Below, in pieces: positions 14,000 through 22,928 of a stretch of DNA of 64,000 nucleotides (positions are counted from its first letter, which is position 1; every line of letters starts with the position of its first letter). Position numbers and translations under genes: made by a program. Below the pieces are notes generated by a model. The model was not told where the DNA came from and did not search any database. It worked only from the letters and a program-made list of their open reading frames with translations. This DNA comes from Candidatus Cloacimonadales bacterium (lineage in GTDB: Bacteria > Cloacimonadota > Cloacimonadia > Cloacimonadales > JAIOQZ01): positions 1,440,001 through 1,504,000 of the forward strand of contig CAXXTU010000002.1 of NCBI GenBank assembly GCA_963662655.2, given 5' to 3'.

Positions 14000-14784
14000 A
14001 AGAAATCCAGCATTTTCTTGAATGAGCTTCGGTTGTCGTCCTCGTTGATCTCGGCAGTGCTCAGGTAGAAGTAATCGATCTCCTCGTTGTTGAGCATCTT
14101 GCGAGGATTGATCCTGGTCAGAAGCTCCGCGGTGTATTCATCGTAGCGTTCCGTGATCAACTCGACAGCCTGCTGCATGGAGTTCGTTTCCGACCGACCG
14201 TGATGATCGGAAGCCAAGAAATGGGCGTAACCCTGTTCAATCAGCGCCCACGCAGTACGCTCGACGTTGTTTCCGTATCCGCCCAGCAAACTTCCGGCGT
14301 TGATTTGCATGTAAACGTTCCGGTAGAGGAGGTCTTCCGCCATGGGGATGTTATTCTGTATATTCATGTAGCGCTCGGGATGCGCGAGAATCGGCTTGTA
14401 GCCGTTGCGGACGAGGTCGTATAGCGCTTGAATGAAAAACTGCGGGAATCCGTTCATGCTGGACTCGACCAGCACGTATTTCGTGTCGCCCATCAGGAGG
14501 CGATCTTCTTTGATCTCTTTCAGGATATCGCTCTCCAGCATAATTTCGGAGCCCAGGTGAAACTGCATTTCGATGCCTGCGTCATTGACGGCTTTCTTGA
14601 GCTCGGGAAGGAGCGCTTCCAGTTTCGAGCGGGGATTTACATAGCTTCCACGCATGTAGTGCGGTGTGAGAACAATCTCGGTAATTCCTGCATCGGCAGC
14701 CGCTTTCACTGCCGCCACGGATACTTCGAGATCGGGAGAACCATCGTCGATACCCGGAGCGATATGGGTATGGATATCAATCAT
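13987..14784 (-). CDS. CpsB/CapC (YwqE-like) PHP-family tyrosine-protein phosphatase
   Basis: MIDIHTHIAPGIDDGS, LTPHY, ILAHPERY and ASDHH; the ATG overlaps the GGGPS stop (ATGA). Confidence 0.9.
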   Translation of the reverse strand: MIDIHTHIAPGIDDGSPDLEVSVAAVKAAADAGITEIVLTPHYMRGSYVNPRSKLEALLPELKKAVNDAGIEMQFHLGSEIMLESDILKEIKEDRLLMGDTKYVLVESSMNGFPQFFIQALYDLVRNGYKPILAHPERYMNIQNNIPMAEDLLYRNVYMQINAGSLLGGYGNNVERTAWALIEQGYAHFLASDHHGRSETNSMQQAVELITERYDEYTAELLTRINPRKMLNNEEIDYFYLSTAEINEDDNRSSFKKMLDFLWKR

Positions 14785-15533
14785 CGCCAAACACCATGGA
14801 TCGCGTCGGCGAATTCGCGCACCAGGCTCATATCTTTGCGATCCTCGATGACCGTTCCCGTCACGATATAATCTGCGCCTGCCTCGGCGAGCTTGATCGC
14901 TGTTTGCGGGTCTCTGATTCCGCCACCGATGATGATCGGCAGTTCCACCGCTTCCCTGACGGCCTTGATCATGTCCGCCTCGATCGGCTGCTGCGCGCCG
15001 CTACCTGCGTCCATGTATATGACCTTCATCCCGAGATACTGCGCCGCTAGCGCATGCGCTACCGCGATATCCGGTTTGCTTCTTGGAATTGGTATGCTAT
15101 GACTCATGTACTGCACGGAGGTTAGCTTGCCCGATTCGATCACCATGTATCCTGTTCCGATCACTTCCAGGTTGCACGAGCGGATCAGCGGCGCTGCCCG
15201 GACTTGCTCTCCGATCAGCATCTGTGGATTTCTGCTCGATATCATGCTCAGGAGCAAGAGCGCGTCGGCGTGCTTCGATACGAAATTGAAGATCCCCGGG
15301 AATATCAGAACGGGGATATCGACCGCCCGTCGGATTTTCTTCAGCGACTCCTCGAAATTGTCGTGGATCATCAGGCTGCCGCCCACTAGAAGTGCGTCCG
15401 CGCCGCTTTCAGCGCAGTTTACCGCAAGCTCGACCGTCTGTTTCACGTCGAATCGATCGGGGTCGATCAGGCAGAAGTATCCTGCGCGTTCCTGTGAATG
15501 CTTTACCAGTCTGTTATATATTTTCTTCTTCAC
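14781..15533 (-). CDS. Geranylgeranylglyceryl phosphate (GGGP) synthase, group II-like
   Basis: LIDPD, LVGGS, PVLIFPG, LSMISSRNPQMLIGEQV, YMDAGSGA and IGGGIR..AGAD..VTG motifs of the GGGPS/PcrB TIM barrel. Confidence 0.9.
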   Translation of the reverse strand: MKKKIYNRLVKHSQERAGYFCLIDPDRFDVKQTVELAVNCAESGADALLVGGSLMIHDNFEESLKKIRRAVDIPVLIFPGIFNFVSKHADALLLLSMISSRNPQMLIGEQVRAAPLIRSCNLEVIGTGYMVIESGKLTSVQYMSHSIPIPRSKPDIAVAHALAAQYLGMKVIYMDAGSGAQQPIEADMIKAVREAVELPIIIGGGIRDPQTAIKLAEAGADYIVTGTVIEDRKDMSLVREFADAIHGVWR

Positions 15534-15707
15534 ATCTGTCTCCTGTGAGTACTACGTACATCATTTCCATTAATAACCTTATATGTCCATATCCCGTTTC
15601 AGGGTTTGTTTGTCAATCTACTTCTGCTGCAATCTACTATTTAGCTTTGCACTCAGAGACTTCCGGCACCAAACGAGCAGCAATCCCCGAGATGTAAGCC
15701 CGAACCA

Positions 15708-15829
15708 GCGGCGGGGCGGCGTGTGCGCTCCGCGCACTTACCCATTTGGAAACAGCTTCCGATCCGGAATCTGTTTTCAAATGGGCAGAAGCCTCGCCGA
15801 AGGCGATGGCTTCAACGCCGCCCCGCCGC
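15708..15829 (+). repeat. Four-way-junction structured element, copy 1 (candidate ncRNA motif or non-autonomous REP/MITE-like element)
   Basis: Perfect 15-bp closing stem 15708-15722/15815-15829 enclosing three hairpins (15723-15737, 15741-15785, 15788-15813). Same architecture as 21017-21207. Confidence 0.7.
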
Positions 15830-15962
15830 GGCAAGCGCGTAAACCAACGCTGGATAAGCGGGGTCGTGGAGCCACCGTCATCCCGGGTGAACACCTGGTC
15901 ATTGAAGAAACGCATTGACACCCAGACCGCACTCCGTGTAGTTTTCATTCTGGGTAAATGAA

Positions 15963-16738
15963 ATGATACCAAAAAAGAAATGGGGCCAGAACTTCCTCAA
16001 CGATCCGAACATCGCGCGCAAGATCGCGGCGATGGCGGAGCTCGATCCTGCAGATCATGTGTGGGAGATCGGGCCGGGCAAAGGCATACTGACGCAGGCG
16101 ATTCTTTCGCATTGCGAGAATCTGACAGCATTCGAGATCGATCCTGAGTTGCAGGAGTACCTGCCGGGCATCTTCTCCGGGCATGAGCAATTCCGGATTG
16201 TCGCTGGGGATATCCTGCGGGTCGATTGGACGCAATACTTGCATCCGCAGACGGTTGTGATATCCAATCTCCCCTACCAGATCACATCACCGTTTTTGTT
16301 CCGTCTGGCAGAGCATTATACGCAAGTCAAGCGATCCGTCCTCATGATCCAGAAAGAGGTCGCAGACCGCATCGTCGCGAAGCCGAACACGAAGGAATAT
16401 GGGATTCTCAGCGTAAAATTGAACCTCGTTTTTACCATTGAGCGGTTGTTCAACGTCGAACCGCATCTCTTCTACCCGCCGCCCAAGGTACGCTCCAGCG
16501 TTATCAGGCTCCGACCACGCCACGACGCGCCGGTTATTGACGATATGGCCCTCATGTACCGCTTGATCGATACCTGCTTCCACTCGCGCAGAAAAACGCT
16601 GCGCAACAACCTGAAAAACATGGTCAGCGATGAGATGCTCCCCTGATCGAAGAAACCACAGACCTTTCCCGAAGAGGAGAATCGCTTGCAGAAGAAGATT
16701 TTATACGTCTGTATCGCGTTATTGCCGATAATCGGTAG
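15963..16738 (+). CDS. rsmA: 16S rRNA m6,2A1518/1519 dimethyltransferase, apparently frameshifted near the C-terminus
   Basis: KKWGQNFL, EIGPGKG, SNLPYQIT, MIQKEVA and PPPKVRS. Frame 0 stops at 16646; the -1 frame continues LIEETTDLSRRGESLAEEDFIRLY to TAG 16738, which is the usual KsgA C-terminus. Confidence 0.9.
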
Positions 16739-18455
16739 CCTCTTCTCTTCGGAAATCGAATTCAACACCCAAGCCGAAAGCTATCGCAAGACCTTCGAGT
16801 GGTCCAACGCGCTGAGCTACAGATACAATTTTCTCAACAATTGGCAAACATACTACCAGGGAGAATTCCAGTCGGAAAACGACGACACCTTCGATCGCGA
16901 TAACTCGATGGCGCTTTTTACCTGGGGCGTGACAAGAAACGCAGGCTGGCTCAGACCCTCGATCCTGTTCGACAGCCGCCTCTCCAAAGAGGAAGGATCG
17001 CTTGAGGCCGGAGACTACAGACTGGAAGAAAATCGCTACGGAGCAGGACTCATGCTGGGCGTTTACCCAATCGAGTCCATTGCCCTGTCCAGCAAGCTCC
17101 GCTACTTGAAACTGGAGGAAGAGTACAACCAGTACGGCGACAAGCTCGACGAGAACAACGACGGTTACGAAAGCGACAACTTACTGTCCTTCGCCCAGGA
17201 TTTTGGCTGGCACAATTTCCAGCTCGATTCCCACTACCGGCTCAATCAGGTGACCAATGACGAGGATCGAAATTACTCCCTGAACACCCGATGGGACATG
17301 ACGCTCCCCAATCAATCCCTGACCGCACAGGTCAGCTGGGACGGCGTCCAGGACGAAATCAACAAGCTCTCGTCGACAACCGATACACAGAAGAGAGATA
17401 TTTTCTCCGGGGACGTCGACTACCGGTTCTCGATATTCTCCATCGAACAGATTAAACTCGGCACGGATTACAGGCAGGTGAAAAATCGTTTCGACCAGAT
17501 TACAACGAAGAATTACGATGAGACCAACAAGTCCTTGCGCCTGGGATTCACATACCCTATGAGCCGTTTCAGATTCGAGATCAACTCGATGCGGGAGCTC
17601 AACGAAAAGGATTACCAGTCGGGAATCAATACACTGGACACCGATTACCGCGAATTCGAAGCCACGATTCACTATTCGATCACGGAACGGGACTCCATGG
17701 TCTTCTATCGCTCCATTAACCTGCGACAGACCGATGCGCCAAAGGCGAGTATACGTACAGACAACGACCGGCTTCAGGAGCGCATGAATATAGGTATGTA
17801 CTATTATCTCTACGATCGCGTTCACACATCGACCCTGTTCTACGTCCTGCGTACGGAACAGGTTTACCTTTACCGCGAAATGTCGGGAAACAATCGCGTT
17901 ACCACCAGCTACAACCTGCAACCGGAGATATCCATCGCATACGGCAACCGGTTCCAGGTCAGACAGTTCTACGCCATCCGGGCCGATTACGAGGATTATG
18001 AGTGGTCGGAGCTCCATACAGACCATTTCTATCGTCGCCTGGAAGCCGGCGTACAATTCATTTACGATGAATCCCCTGACATGCAAGTAGCATCCGAGAA
18101 CAAATGGGGACATCTCCACTTGAATCGAACGGTTGAGCATCCATTCACAGCAATCCTGGGATACGAATACGAGAACTCCGCTTCCGGAGACAAGGAAGAC
18201 GATTACTACAACATCACGCTCGAACGTGAGAATCACGAGATATCCCTCGAAATGATCGAGACGTGGGACTTCTTCTCGCTACGATCATTATCGATCATAT
18301 CCTGGTCGACTTTTACCGAAATCCAGCAACGTATCGAGCTTGACTTCTTCCTTTCGGACTTTTCTTACGCCTCCTTCAGTATCCATCCAGTATCAAGGGA
18401 TTTCGAGGAACCTGAATGGAAATTAAACTTTGACATCTCCATGGCATTACAGTAA
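16686..18455 (+). CDS. Putative outer-membrane beta-barrel protein
   Basis: Signal peptide after GAGGAG SD; 589 aa of alternating Tyr/Phe-rich amphipathic strands. Confidence 0.6.
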   Translation: MQKKILYVCIALLPIIGSLFSSEIEFNTQAESYRKTFEWSNALSYRYNFLNNWQTYYQGEFQSENDDTFDRDNSMALFTWGVTRNAGWLRPSILFDSRLSKEEGSLEAGDYRLEENRYGAGLMLGVYPIESIALSSKLRYLKLEEEYNQYGDKLDENNDGYESDNLLSFAQDFGWHNFQLDSHYRLNQVTNDEDRNYSLNTRWDMTLPNQSLTAQVSWDGVQDEINKLSSTTDTQKRDIFSGDVDYRFSIFSIEQIKLGTDYRQVKNRFDQITTKNYDETNKSLRLGFTYPMSRFRFEINSMRELNEKDYQSGINTLDTDYREFEATIHYSITERDSMVFYRSINLRQTDAPKASIRTDNDRLQERMNIGMYYYLYDRVHTSTLFYVLRTEQVYLYREMSGNNRVTTSYNLQPEISIAYGNRFQVRQFYAIRADYEDYEWSELHTDHFYRRLEAGVQFIYDESPDMQVASENKWGHLHLNRTVEHPFTAILGYEYENSASGDKEDDYYNITLERENHEISLEMIETWDFFSLRSLSIISWSTFTEIQQRIELDFFLSDFSYASFSIHPVSRDFEEPEWKLNFDISMALQ

Positions 18456-18481
18456 TTTCACTAATATAGACGGAGTGAAAA

Positions 18482-19690
18482 ATGAAGTTCAATCTGAATA
18501 ATTTCCTGATTGCTGTTTCCATGGCGCTCGACTTTGTCGAGATGGATATCCTTGGCGCAACCGCGGACCACACCAGAAGAGTCGCCTATATTTCGCTTCG
18601 AATAGCTGAAGCGCTCGACATGACGCCAGAAGAAAAGTTCGACTTATGCTCCTTTGCCATCCTACACGACAACGGACTCAGCGAGGAAGTTCTATATTCA
18701 ACGCTGGAGATCGACAAGATCGATCGCCTGGGTAAAATGGAAGGCTATAAAGAGCACTGCAACATCGGCGAACGAAACATTGTCGATTACCCGTTTCTCA
18801 CCGAAAACCGGGATATTGTCCGCTACCATCATGAGGGCTTCAGCGGGAAAGGCTTCTTCGGCCTGGCTGAAGACGAGATTCCGCTCATGGCGCAGATTAT
18901 CGGATTGGCTGATTACGTGGACAATCGCTTCCATTTCGAGATACCCCCGCTTGAACATCGGCGAAAAATCATCCAATACATCGAAAGTCAGAAAGGGCGA
19001 CGTTTCTCCAGGGAGATGGTCGAATTGTTTCTCGATGTCAGCAGCAAAACCAGTTTCTGGTTCGATCTTAAGCGGCCGTTCATTTACCACGAACTCCCAA
19101 AGCTGGTTCCTCAAATCGAGTGTGATTATGATTGCGAGGAAGTGTTGAAAATCACTAGCGTCTTTTCCAGAATCATCGATTCGAAGTCAAAATTTACAGC
19201 AAGGCACTCGACCGGGCTGATCGAGAAAGCCAAAATCATGACCGAGTTCTACGGATTCGAGGCAGAGAAGAGGGGTCGGTTTGCCATAGCAGCCAGCCTG
19301 CATGATTTGGGGAAACTCGCGATCCCCAACAATATCCTCGATAAGCGGCATTCCCTCACTCTTGACGATTTCGAGATCATCAAGGCGCACACGTATTACA
19401 CGCGACAGGCCCTGCAGGAGATCACCTGTTTCGAAGACATTACCGAGTGGGCCTCGAACCATCATGAGAAGTTGAATGGGATGGGGTATCCGTACGGATT
19501 CAAGGCAGAAAGGCTTTCCTTCGAGGATCGTTTGATGAGTTGTCTGGATATATATCAGGCGCTTTCCGAGCAACGCCCCTATCGAAATCCATCTCCGCAC
19601 GAGCAGGTGATGGTGCTCATGCGGAAGATGGTAAAAAACGGTTATATCGACGGTGATATCGTTGAAGACCTCAACCGTGTCTTTGCTTGA
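18482..19690 (+). CDS. Tandem HD/HD-GYP domain phosphohydrolase (putative cyclic dinucleotide phosphodiesterase)
   Basis: Two HD modules: ILHDNG...HHEGFSGKG and SLHDLGK...HHEKLNGMGYP...RPYR. Confidence 0.9.
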   Translation: MKFNLNNFLIAVSMALDFVEMDILGATADHTRRVAYISLRIAEALDMTPEEKFDLCSFAILHDNGLSEEVLYSTLEIDKIDRLGKMEGYKEHCNIGERNIVDYPFLTENRDIVRYHHEGFSGKGFFGLAEDEIPLMAQIIGLADYVDNRFHFEIPPLEHRRKIIQYIESQKGRRFSREMVELFLDVSSKTSFWFDLKRPFIYHELPKLVPQIECDYDCEEVLKITSVFSRIIDSKSKFTARHSTGLIEKAKIMTEFYGFEAEKRGRFAIAASLHDLGKLAIPNNILDKRHSLTLDDFEIIKAHTYYTRQALQEITCFEDITEWASNHHEKLNGMGYPYGFKAERLSFEDRLMSCLDIYQALSEQRPYRNPSPHEQVMVLMRKMVKNGYIDGDIVEDLNRVFA

Positions 19691-20026
19691 TTAATGCCCG
19701 CAGGATATCGTCGGATCGTCTTTCAGTACGCCAGTGATGTACTGCTCAATGATTTCATCGAGTTCGACTTCACCAACACCGCACACAACCTTGATTCCGT
19801 TCTGCGCAAACAATTCCTTTGCTCTGGAACCCATGTTACCTGCGATGATGATATCCACGTTTTGTTCCCCGAGGAACTGCGGCAAGAGACCCGGCTGATG
19901 CGGCGGTGACGGAAGAACCTTTTTCTCTACGACTTCGTTGTTCTCGATTGTATAAAGCGTGAAATGCGGAGCGTGGCCGAAGTGGCCGCTCATTTGTCCG
20001 TTATCTGTAGGTATTGCGATCAACAT
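19691..20026 (-). CDS. NifB/NifX family Fe-Mo cofactor-binding-like protein
   Basis: SGHFGHAPHF, PPHQPGLLP and IIAGNMG; downstream of mrp. Confidence 0.9.
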   Translation of the reverse strand: MLIAIPTDNGQMSGHFGHAPHFTLYTIENNEVVEKKVLPSPPHQPGLLPQFLGEQNVDIIIAGNMGSRAKELFAQNGIKVVCGVGEVELDEIIEQYITGVLKDDPTISCGH

Positions 20027-20029
20027 AGA

Positions 20030-20845
20030 TTATCCCTCCACTTTTTCGATGATCTTGTGGGTTATATCCTGCATGATCCCGGCAGCTTTCATCTTGCCGA
20101 AATCGTATATGTACGGGCGACCGGAGTCGCTAGACTTTGCGATATTGGTATCGATCGGGATTCTTCCGAGGATATCCACGCCGAAATCATCGGCGGCTTT
20201 CTGGGTCCCTTCGCCTTCGAAGATGCTGATTTCCTTGCCGCAGTGGGGGCAAAGGAACGTCCCCATGTTTTCCACGATGCCCAGTACCGGAACCGTCATT
20301 CTATGCGAGAAATTGATGGTCTTACGTGCGTCGAGGAAAGCAACGTCCTGCGGGGTAGAAACGATCACCGAGCCATCCACCTTGCCAAGCAGTTGCACGA
20401 TCGAAAGCGGTTCGTCACCGGTTCCAGGAGGACAATCTGCGATCAGGTAGTCGATTTCCGGCCAGGCAATTTCTTCCAGGAACTGGCGGATTGCGCCCAT
20501 CTTGAGCGGTCCACGCCAGATGATCGGTTCATCCGCATCCGGGAGCATGGAAGCGATGGTTACGGCATGAAGGTTTTCGTGAACGCGAATCGGCATTGGC
20601 TCGCCGTTCTCGTCGACTTCGAGTCTGCGACCTTCGATCCCAAGCATTTTCGCAAGCGATGGGCCGTGCAGGTCTGTGTCGATCAGACCGACTCTTCTGC
20701 CGGCAAGCGCGAGACCGTATGCCAGGTTGACCGCCATGGTGCTCTTCCCCACGCCGCCTTTTCCGCTTAGGACTACGATTTTATATTTGATGCGCTTCAG
20801 ATTGGCCTGAAGCTTCTCATCGGAAGGCTTCTTTGCGTTTTGCAT
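20030..20845 (-). CDS. mrp: Mrp/NBP35 (ApbC) Fe-S cluster carrier ATPase
   Basis: SGKGGVGKST, IIWRGP, DCPPGTGDEP and ENMGTFLCPHC. Confidence 0.95.
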   Translation of the reverse strand: MQNAKKPSDEKLQANLKRIKYKIVVLSGKGGVGKSTMAVNLAYGLALAGRRVGLIDTDLHGPSLAKMLGIEGRRLEVDENGEPMPIRVHENLHAVTIASMLPDADEPIIWRGPLKMGAIRQFLEEIAWPEIDYLIADCPPGTGDEPLSIVQLLGKVDGSVIVSTPQDVAFLDARKTINFSHRMTVPVLGIVENMGTFLCPHCGKEISIFEGEGTQKAADDFGVDILGRIPIDTNIAKSSDSGRPYIYDFGKMKAAGIMQDITHKIIEKVEG

Positions 20846-21016
20846 TGTCTAATTCCTCCAATTATTGGCTGTTATCTTTACGGAACGAAAAACATACGGT
20901 TGCGTTTCTTTGTCAACCAGTATTCATCTTGTTTAACACGAAATACTTCCCAATGGATTCCCGCAGAATACTGCACATATGTTCATAACGCACGTTTCGG
21001 TCGCTCTTCTTTTCGT

Positions 21017-21207
21017 GAGCAGCCCACGTCCGCGGGGCAGCGCAGAAGCTCATACGCCACGGGCCTGTTCCGAAGACGAGTCACTGAGGATGAGGAACAG
21101 GCCCGTGGCTTTGGATGAGCTTCTTCCCCTCACCGATTGCAAAATTGCAATCGGTGAGGGGGTGTGCTTTGCACACGCGCTGCCCCGCCGGACTTCTCTT
21201 GCTGCCC
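21017..21207 (-). repeat. Four-way-junction structured element, copy 2 (inverted relative to copy 1)
   Basis: Closing stem 21032-21043/21177-21188 (extendable) enclosing hairpins 21044-21124, 21126-21161 and 21162-21176. On the minus strand it has the same order and junction bases as copy 1. Confidence 0.7.
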
Positions 21208-21581: not shown

Positions 21582-22928
21582 ATGTTAAAGGAATTTAGGT
21601 ACCAGGGTGTAAAAAGAGACACGAAGAAAATCGTTCGCGGAACGATCTACGAAGCGAATCTGAATACCGCCCGGAAGAAGATCAATCAGCTTGCTCTGGA
21701 ACACAACTTTGGCGTACAGAAGGTAGAGCAGAAGAAATCCTTTTTATACAAAGCGATAACCTCACAGGGGAAGAAGGTCAAAGGAGAACAGGACGCGTTC
21801 ACAAAGGACGAACTGCAGAATGCCCTTGCCAGCCTCGGATATAAAAACATCGCCGTCGAACCGAATCTACTGAACATCAGAATGAAACCGCCTTTTGGCG
21901 ACATCGTCATGTTCATTTCCATCACGGCGGACATGCTGAACGAGAACATGAAGTTCGACGAGATATTGAAGATTCACTCGACAGACGTCCAGAACAAGAC
22001 CCTCCGAAACGCGGTCAAAGGCATTTCTCGCGACCTCAGGCAGGGGCAGGACGGCATGAGCGTCTTCCAGAAGTACGCCGACGTCTTTGGCAAATTCACG
22101 TCCTACATGCTCGGACTTGCCTCAAAATCAGGTAACATGGCGGAAATCTACAAGAGCACCGCCGAGTACCTCACGCGCCAGGCGGATTTCCAGAAGAACC
22201 TCCGCCAAGCGCTGGTTATGCCCATCGTGACCTTCATTGCGATCCTCGGTGCGATCGGATACTACGTCGGAAAGCTGTTCCCGGAAATCACGGAGATGTT
22301 CATTCGCTTCAAGATGGAACTCCCCCCCATGACCGCCGCAACGATGGAGCTCAGCTACTTCCTGCAAGACAACTGGTGGTGGCTGGTTATCTTGTTCACT
22401 GCTCCAATTGCCCTCGTGCTGTGGTGGTTCTCGACTCCCAAGGGACGCCTCTGGCGAGATAAGTTTATCATCAAGCTCCCCGTTGTCGGCGAGCTGATTC
22501 ATAAGATGAATATCGAGATTTTCTTCCGCGTGTTCTCCATCGTGTACAGCGGATCGGGCAACAATATCGAGGTGCTCCAAATTGCAGCGGAAGCATGCGG
22601 AAACGCGCACATGGAAAAGCAAATCAAGGAGATAACCATACCTCGAATGCTTAAGGAAGGCGCCGGCCTAATCGATGCCATCGAGGCGTCCGAAGTGTTT
22701 ACCGATACCGCCATCACTCGCTTGAACGCAGGGTCCGCCACTGGTTCGGTGAAGAACGCATCCTTCCAGATTGCAGCCTATTACGAAAAAGAAACCAAGT
22801 ACAAATTTCAGACAATCCTGCAAACGATCGACGTTCTAACAGCATTATTTATCCTTGTGGTCATGACTGGACTCATCGTGGTTTCTTCCGAAAGCGCGTT
22901 CATGCGTCCACCAACACCCGGTGCATAG
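21582..22928 (+). CDS. pilC: Type IV pilus / T2SS inner membrane platform protein (PilC/GspF)
   Basis: Two T2SSF-like domains with three TM segments; ELPPMT and KLPVVG motifs; directly upstream of a PilB ATPase. Confidence 0.85.
   Translation: MLKEFRYQGVKRDTKKIVRGTIYEANLNTARKKINQLALEHNFGVQKVEQKKSFLYKAITSQGKKVKGEQDAFTKDELQNALASLGYKNIAVEPNLLNIRMKPPFGDIVMFISITADMLNENMKFDEILKIHSTDVQNKTLRNAVKGISRDLRQGQDGMSVFQKYADVFGKFTSYMLGLASKSGNMAEIYKSTAEYLTRQADFQKNLRQALVMPIVTFIAILGAIGYYVGKLFPEITEMFIRFKMELPPMTAATMELSYFLQDNWWWLVILFTAPIALVLWWFSTPKGRLWRDKFIIKLPVVGELIHKMNIEIFFRVFSIVYSGSGNNIEVLQIAAEACGNAHMEKQIKEITIPRMLKEGAGLIDAIEASEVFTDTAITRLNAGSATGSVKNASFQIAAYYEKETKYKFQTILQTIDVLTALFILVVMTGLIVVSSESAFMRPPTPGA

Follow-up and report, generated by a model that had tools for sequence, protein, structure and literature searches.

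An apparently undescribed REP/REPIN-like intergenic repeat with a predicted four-way junction in a Candidatus Cloacimonadales genome

Introduction

Repetitive extragenic palindromes (REPs) are defined by a tetranucleotide, GTAG or GTGG, that lies 0–2 nt 5′ of a hairpin, as set out in PMC6006769. Together with REP doublets (REPINs) and with RAYTs (REP-associated tyrosine transposases), they are described as extragenic systems of many copies in either orientation, with lineage-specific expansion (PMC3116915, PMC6006769, PMC3733652). In REPINs, conserved ends enclose a variable spacer whose length and pairing are preserved by compensatory changes; the substrate of RAYT has been proposed to be a clover fold of the REPIN (PMC3116915). 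Here we describe an intergenic repeat resembling these systems in its extragenic position, many copies, free orientation, lineage-specific expansion and conserved ends around a variable spacer. It occurs twice in a 64,000-nucleotide stretch of a Candidatus Cloacimonadales bacterium (assembly GCA_963662655.2, contig CAXXTU010000002.1, positions 1,440,001 to 1,504,000; "the window") and in at least 75 copies in the source genome (G000; 3.81 Mb, 98.95% complete). It carries no gene and is predicted to fold into a four-way junction, in which a closing stem (P1) holds three hairpins (P2, P3 and P4). The reading that we favor, as somewhat probable, is that it derives from a GTAG-type REP doublet and that a RAYT-type HUH transposase, since lost from the genome, copied it in the form of folded single-stranded DNA.

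Two other described systems bear on the comparison. The bcr1 element of the Bacillus cereus group is about 155 bp long, mobile, folds into a cruciform-like shape preserved by compensatory changes, and lies at genomic positions that are not conserved (PMC3184786). In that source bcr1 has 5-bp flanking direct repeats, two side stem-loops and evidence of transcription, whereas the present element, compared by description, shows no duplication signal, encloses three hairpins in its closing stem and has GNA-capped loops. The heptamer GCGNAGC, an extra-stable DNA mini-hairpin whose related RNA hairpins are far weaker, is found in the phage G4 origin, in ssiA and in N4 promoters (PMC13037366). It also caps P2 in 60/75 copies of the element, a repeat dispersed over the chromosome, whereas each of the described mini-hairpins is one functional site, used by primase or RNA polymerase.

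Results

At least 75 copies share a fold maintained by covariation

The original prediction, made from the window alone, had proposed two copies of an unannotated four-way-junction element whose structure is conserved while its sequence is not. A genome-wide search for further homologues, which demanded no more than a closing stem rich in GC and a hairpin of 6 bp, collected 75 full copies in G000; others lie in congeners and in Clostridia. The count is a lower bound, one further full copy having been seen outside the set, and two of the 75 represent one segmental duplication. The four-way junction is predicted in 75/75 copies, against 79 of 900 letter-shuffled cores, and 50/75 have just 0–2 unpaired bases at the junction. 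P1 forms a terminal inverted repeat of 11–24 bp, and P2 has 6 bp and a 3-nt loop in 71/75 copies. The other arms fall into discrete length classes, 17–28 nt (9 copies) and 36–56 nt (66 copies) for P3, 16–32 nt (33 copies) and 64–95 nt (42 copies) for P4; the combination of short P3 with short P4 is absent, and whole elements measure 105–200 nt. In no class do P2 and P4 have the same sequence, and they are not inverted copies of one REP. In the window, both copies bear out the proposed fold (z = -11.7 for copy 1 and -13.4 for copy 2, with 0/200 shuffles as stable), as well as the proposed P4 lengths of 26 and 81 nt. A short apical motif with a GAA loop was seen in 7/41 long P4 arms of G000.

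The pairing has been kept while the sequence changed. Watson-Crick pairs make up 1324/1358 of the P3 pairs and G-U the other 34/1358. Among 28 short copies, two-sided changes occur at 37/48 pairs, a value reached by 0/500 shuffles, kinship among the copies inflating the test. In 14 non-independent pairs of related copies, comprising 794 base pairs, 33 pairs kept their pairing through a change on both sides, 47 carried a one-sided change and 8 were broken on both, and 134/416 unpaired positions differ. The claim that structure is kept over sequence is supported. The element is also unannotated as far as Rfam is concerned: at gathering score there was no match for the window or for 8 further copies, just weak matches of eukaryotic type.

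Template switching that perfects imperfect inverted repeats is known in bacteria. A neutral relic, its pairing kept only by such self-repair of palindromes as described in yeast (PMC3820800), would fit the truncated copies reported below. It would leave unexplained the fixed sequence of P1, P2 and the base of P4, the constant 6-bp/3-nt P2, the GNA caps, the discrete arm lengths and the recurrence of the core in another phylum. The relic is largely refuted as a full account, and most improbable; template switching may add to the symmetry of the arms.

Copies lie between ordinary genes in every orientation

No overlap with called genes was found for 71/75 copies; the remaining 4 overlap gene calls that are rough, and are unchecked. 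The neighboring genes are convergent in 24 cases, divergent in 20, tandem with the element in sense in 19 and tandem in antisense in 12. They are functionally unrelated and look like ordinary host genes. Because all four orientations occur, a riboswitch is excluded; the copies have no fixed sense-strand position 5′ of functionally related genes, as a riboswitch or other cis-regulatory RNA would. This supports the earlier preference for a stand-alone element over a riboswitch. That preference had drawn on TTGACA boxes between each window copy and its downstream gene; both boxes are in the sequence (Table 1).

Genes point into the element from the sense side in 43 cases and from the antisense side in 36. 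No terminator was detected on 57 of these 79 sides, so that many copies are probably read through. In the spacing of the copies, no pair lies closer than 4 kb, where 4.1 are expected (P = 0.015). Gaps of 4–6 kb number 9 on G000:C2, against 2.7 expected in a size window picked post hoc, and include that between the two window copies. The likeness within the 8 pairs closer than 6.5 kb does not exceed that of distant pairs, giving no sign of local hopping. Copies are not significantly enriched next to secreted proteins that have a C-terminal domain in common (P = 0.076). Nor did the copies mark rearrangement hotspots in the 3 of 7 fetched regions that were searched: the congener genes are non-adjacent at 9/10 copies versus 7/13 element-free boundaries, which is not significant.

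Other features of the genome were noted in passing. One copy (G000:C2:1848598-1848712) follows a tyrosine recombinase gene of XerC/D size, 28 nt downstream of it, probably by chance. A second intergenic repeat family (G000:C2:1963040-1963184 and about 25 other sites) is present in all three congeners, often as tandem arrays, and its small hairpin also has GNA-type triloops. Related prophage-like regions with 90–99% identity lie at G000:C1:11442-20980 and at C2:1-9964, 477009-509268, 2731829-2758730 and 3289755-3322274.

Loop types point to DNA

The loops point to a DNA-level element. GCGNAGC, its middle base free, lies on the strand opposite the reader's in 55 of the 60 copies that carry it, the reader's strand being that on which the original prediction oriented the element (plus for copy 1, minus for copy 2). 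Triloops close 71/75 P2 hairpins but only 10/58 terminator hairpins of the same genome, none of the latter being of the GCGNAGC type. The consistent strand polarity first proposed was upheld in one respect and not in another: G-T, G-A and G-G mismatches favor the reader's strand (53 vs 20), while the GNA cap sits on the other strand in 55/75 copies. Two signals on opposite strands would agree better with a structure that both strands of the DNA form than with a single RNA.

A structured 3′-UTR or small RNA that stabilizes or terminates transcripts would be in line with the excess of G-T over A-C on the reader's strand (32 vs 15, P = 0.019), with the better folding of that strand in 51/75 copies, with the probable read-through and with the transcription of bcr1, the closest published shape (PMC3184786). 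The mismatch polarity is equally expected of single-stranded DNA. Entries from sense and antisense sides are 43 vs 36, and 20/75 copies stand between divergent genes. No UUCG loop occurs, and GNRA-type loops, absent from P2 and P3, are limited to 4 among the 33 P4 arms of the short class, with 1 of the 4 on the other strand. In P2 three pairs covary, yet the 28 sequences contain no G-U cell. With no Rfam match in addition, we consider an element acting as RNA distinctly unlikely. The structured RNA motif of the original prediction is accordingly the less supported of its two proposals, the low G-U content of P3 and the free orientation to neighbors included; its REP-like or MITE-like (miniature inverted-repeat transposable element) nature is supported.

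Filled and empty sites among the congeners

A P1-P2 pattern was searched for in 232 genomes of the phylum, including G000 and three congeners (G001, G002 and G003). It was found in 56 places in G000 and once in each congener, and in none of the remaining 228 genomes. Empty orthologous sites, which the original prediction had suggested looking for, exist. The mrp/pilC gap that holds copy 2 is empty in 3/3 congeners, both promoters being intact there; GGGPS and rsmA, the neighbors of copy 1, are not adjacent in the congeners. A RAYT-type gene with its own short repeats lies beside the GGGPS gene in G001 (L173:1441-2022), G002 (L170:1435-2010) and G003.

The single copies detected in G001 and G003 occupy the same divergent gap beside queD in the same orientation, a site that is empty in G000 and G002. 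Between these two genomes, whose neighboring genes are about 74–77% identical, the inner P1, the P2 stem and the P4 base of the queD copy are kept, and P3 and the P4 tip are replaced. Such a copy with rewritten arms is a hint of host function. The copy in G002 is 90.8% identical over 120 nt to a copy of G000, its surroundings having no match in G000; this likeness at unrelated loci suggests transfer between species.

These loci bear on the idea that the host maintains the DNA structure: a cross resembling a Holliday junction would be extruded between transcription units and held by a protein of the host (nucleoid, topoisomerase or junction-binding), and would have spread in some lineages for being useful or tolerated. 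The lone queD copy has kept its core with its arms replaced and no second copy in the genome to convert from, the junction is nearly free of unpaired bases in most G000 copies, and copies keep at least 4 kb apart. Yet the structure is dispensable, as the empty queD locus in G000 and G002 and the 228 of 232 phylum genomes without the pattern indicate, its copy number runs from 1 to more than 75 within one genus, and no binding protein has been identified. Taken together this is a tentative alternative that we judge unlikely.

A related form in Clostridia

The element was also found in another phylum. A covariance model (CM) was built on short-class copies, copy 1 among them, and used on 61 genomes with at most 59 candidates scored in each; the long copy of G003 was missed, so that absences in this search are soft. 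A P1-P2 pattern scan of a species collection gave at least 94 matches, from 94 of about 170 stretches. Among the matches listed, 14 loci score at E < 0.001 with the model, all from three related Clostridia metagenome-assembled genomes (MAGs; G061, G062 and G063), in which the pattern matches number 28, 5 and 3. The metagenome matches are of Clostridia type in 8/33 cases, and viral contigs, phages and plasmids gave no full match.

The Clostridia copies have P1 and P2 in common with those of G000, while P3 and P4 are different. Triloops recur: the P2 loops are purine-N-A in 26/29, here on the reader's strand. At one locus, related genomes have the element in opposite orientations. Mosaics resembling bacterial interspersed mosaic elements (BIMEs) include it as a module in G061, where its copies are young, with a mean identity of 86%. 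Five Clostridia loci (L174, L177, L180, L232 and L246) show P1 running into perfect, copy-specific, terminator-like arms of 13–20 bp, as if the element had entered a hairpin loop; the empty L174 orthologues have a hairpin there.

Boundaries and candidate movers

The closest copies at unrelated sites share identity in the core and none in the flanks, P1 bounding the identity. Conserved sequence reaches about 30 nt past P1 on the left side of the family. No pairing of the flanks was found directly beside P1, and a weak outer inverted repeat occurs in 6/74 copies (0.8 expected). Empty sites carrying the flank consensus were not found above background. Three decayed copies were recognized, two of them left halves and one reduced to P1 alone (G000:C2:100900-100960, 1165282-1165417 and 3617690-3617751). 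An autonomous copy with an open reading frame inside an arm was rejected, the two unclosed left halves being truncations before ordinary genes. Flanking direct repeats show no excess over shuffled partners in three windows, a test of target duplication that is limited by old copies and unalignable empty sites.

Movers of several kinds were searched for. IS110 has no match in G000 and TnpB none in 5 genomes, G000 among them; for Y2 there was no match in 9 genomes, a result without weight as the control was silent too. The original prediction had suggested a linked RAYT or GIY-YIG gene, and neither a linked RAYT nor a stand-alone intact GIY-YIG gene was found in G000. Its GIY-YIG matches comprise a 613-aa UvrC-sized frame and one interrupted frame, and a GIY-YIG mover was rejected. 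Tyrosine recombinases occur in all 5 genomes and are uninformative. A four-helix-bundle gene was discarded, lying near no copy and being absent from G061–G063. G000 has two multi-copy insertion sequence (IS) families of about 13 and about 8 copies; their ends are unlike P1, and no autonomous IS with the ends of the element was found in G000.

Integron attC sites and retron non-coding RNAs also keep structure over sequence, with a closing inverted repeat around variable hairpins. Unlike attC, the element does not lie in cassette arrays. Unlike a retron non-coding RNA, it has no adjacent reverse transcriptase, and there is no intact one in G000 or the three Clostridia MAGs: the sole reverse transcriptase of G000 is AT-rich, interrupted by one TGA and about 10 kb from the nearest copy (L011:1141-2700; G000:C2:981049-982608), and G061–G063 have none. 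In the short class, P4 also falls short of the size of an msd.

As a classical MITE, with a DDE or some other non-HUH transposase for its mover, the element would have P1 as its terminal inverted repeats, in the manner of bcr1. The 11–24 bp repeat that bounds identity and the copy collapsed to P1 alone would suit this reading. Against it stand the lack of excess direct repeats, the IS ends unlike P1, the conserved sequence beyond P1 on the left and the lack of IS110 and TnpB matches, and we regard it as improbable.

Similarity of the conserved end to GTAG REPs

Among the matches listed, two unrelated genomes have a P1 arm and P2 followed by the reverse complement of GTAG, arranged as doublets or tandem copies. 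In one of them, 39 nt separate the start of a RAYT gene (NF047646, 193.5 bits) from a GTAG REP whose stem is that of P2 of the element; this unrelated genome is the only place where a RAYT was seen beside a P2-type hairpin. The search pattern required the stem and tail (about 16 nt), and did not require the GTAG tag or the RAYT neighbor. In copy 1 of the window, the minus strand of P2 carries a GCGNAGC mini-hairpin with GTAA at its 5′ foot, in the position of GTAG in the related REPs.

The two window copies

The features of both copies and their surroundings are listed in Table 1. The genes flanking them are those named in the original prediction, the pilC match being below the curated cut-off. 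Several of its details hold in the window without extending to the family. The GCAGCAA upstream and the CCC start of P3 are present in both copies, each in only 2/75 family-wide, and the divergent-gene context, true of both, applies to 20/75. The G-U positions taken as a sign of polarity are both in the sequence, although that of copy 2 (21018/21206) sits in the outer helix, outside the core.

A Logan contig spans both copies with 0 differing letters and 1 gap; the run may be the source sample of the assembly. For one joint in a public sequencing run at the element, the best explanation is that other copies map to the inverted repeats. Close to the end of rsmA, at window position 16639, an extra base is present in one public contig; the window frame stops at 227 aa, possibly through an assembly slip in the window.

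Table 1. Coordinates of the two copies, their parts and their surroundings in the window.
Feature	Position	Strand	Basis
Copy 1, whole four-way-junction core, short class, 122 nt	15708..15829	+	Fold; CM 84.6 bits (training-set member)
Copy 1 closing stem P1, 5′ arm (partner 15815-15829)	15708..15722	+	Fold
Copy 1 hairpin P2, 6 bp, 3-nt loop	15723..15737	+	Fold
Copy 1 long variable hairpin P3, 45 nt	15741..15785	+	Fold
Copy 1 hairpin P4, short class, 26 nt, GAA triloop	15788..15813	+	Fold
Copy 1 closing stem P1, 3′ arm	15815..15829	+	Fold
Degenerate left flank common to the family, limits approximate, seen only beside elements	15680..15707	+	Sequence comparison
Copy 2, whole core, long class, 157 nt	21032..21188	-	Fold; short-copy CM 64.6 bits
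Copy 2 P1	21188-21177 with 21043-21032	-	Fold
Copy 2 P2	21176-21162	-	Fold
Copy 2 P3	21161-21126	-	Fold
Copy 2 P4	21124-21044	-	Fold
Copy 2 plus outer helices, which fall outside the family core	21017..21207	-	Fold
TTGACA box, directed away from copy 1 to rsmA; kept in three congeners without the element there	15915..15920	+	Sequence
TTGACA box, directed away from copy 2 to mrp; kept in three congeners without the element there	20911..20916	-	Sequence
Geranylgeranylglyceryl phosphate synthase (GGGPS) gene, host gene, neighbor of copy 1	14781..15533	-	
rsmA, host gene, neighbor of copy 1	15963..16646	+	
Mrp/ApbC-type Fe-S carrier gene, host gene, neighbor of copy 2	20030..20845	-	
PilC/GspF-family protein gene, host gene, neighbor of copy 2	21582..22928	+	

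Discussion

The match of the P1 arm and P2 to GTAG REPs, the link of one such REP to a RAYT gene and the clover fold proposed for REPINs together suggest a REPIN-like element with diverged ends, locked in the clover shape. P2 would be the old REP hairpin and P4 its diverged partner end. When DNA is unwound by a replication fork, transcription or supercoiling, each strand may fold into P1 and the hairpins P2–P4. The sequences of P1, P2 and the base of P4 would stay fixed through a protein that reads them, and nothing but pairing and a set length would be required of P3 and the P4 tip. Mirrored changes in the arms may come from selection on pairing, aided by template switching, and copies would survive in intergenic gaps in either orientation. 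Whether the element moved in the manner proposed we put at about even.

Several observations weigh against descent from a REP doublet and copying by a RAYT-type enzyme. The similarity to REPs lies in about 16 nt that were demanded by the search pattern, only the tag and the RAYT neighbor being independent of it. The REP beside the RAYT lacks the GC tail, and the REPs of both genomes lack GNA loops. At the P2 foot in G000, GTAG or GTGG occurs in 0/75 copies (1/75 at any foot tested); GTTA, GTAA or GTCA occurs in 18/75, on the strand of the GNA cap. P2 and P4 do not mirror each other as the ends of a REPIN do. No Y1 transposase was found in G000 or G061–G063, nor any remnant by tblastn, and the lack of a match in G061 goes together with young copies there, in a genome that may be incomplete. 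The Y1 genes of the congeners are flanked by other repeats. The copies show no replichore bias (35/72), and no exact insertion boundary or excision was seen, the empty spacers being too diverged. Retention of a single queD-site copy in both G001 and G003 is unexpected for a purely selfish relic.

Compared with REPINs, the element lacks the GTAG/GTGG guide and a RAYT in its genome, has a GC-rich closing stem and a length of 105–200 nt, and its two end hairpins are unrelated, so that only the branched fold is available to it. Failing two defining features of REPs, the tag and the cognate RAYT, it is not classed as a REP. A further and doubtful possibility is that REP descendants, freed from their transposase, have become Holliday-junction mimics in chromosomal DNA, whose fixed core is read by a host or other protein and whose freely rewritten arms keep to set helical lengths. 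They would pass from one phylum to another (this genus and gut Clostridia) and be selected even as a single copy.

No description of the family was found in the main texts of the open-access literature. The element is real DNA of REP/REPIN-like character, apparently undescribed, with a fair chance of a host function. The case contributes a core common to two phyla, a link to REPs and RAYT, a lone orthologous copy with rewritten arms and a test based on loops. What is known of REPs and REPINs concerns mainly simple hairpins linked to a RAYT, whereas here a putative REP end stands in a strict four-way junction, in a family without guide tag or transposase that is nonetheless present 75-fold in one species, common to another phylum and conserved in congeners as a single copy. 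Two questions become testable with it: which agent moves or maintains palindromic repeats that are orphans, and whether recognition is of the branched clover fold as a unit. The covariance model and the filled and empty sites are ready substrates for both.

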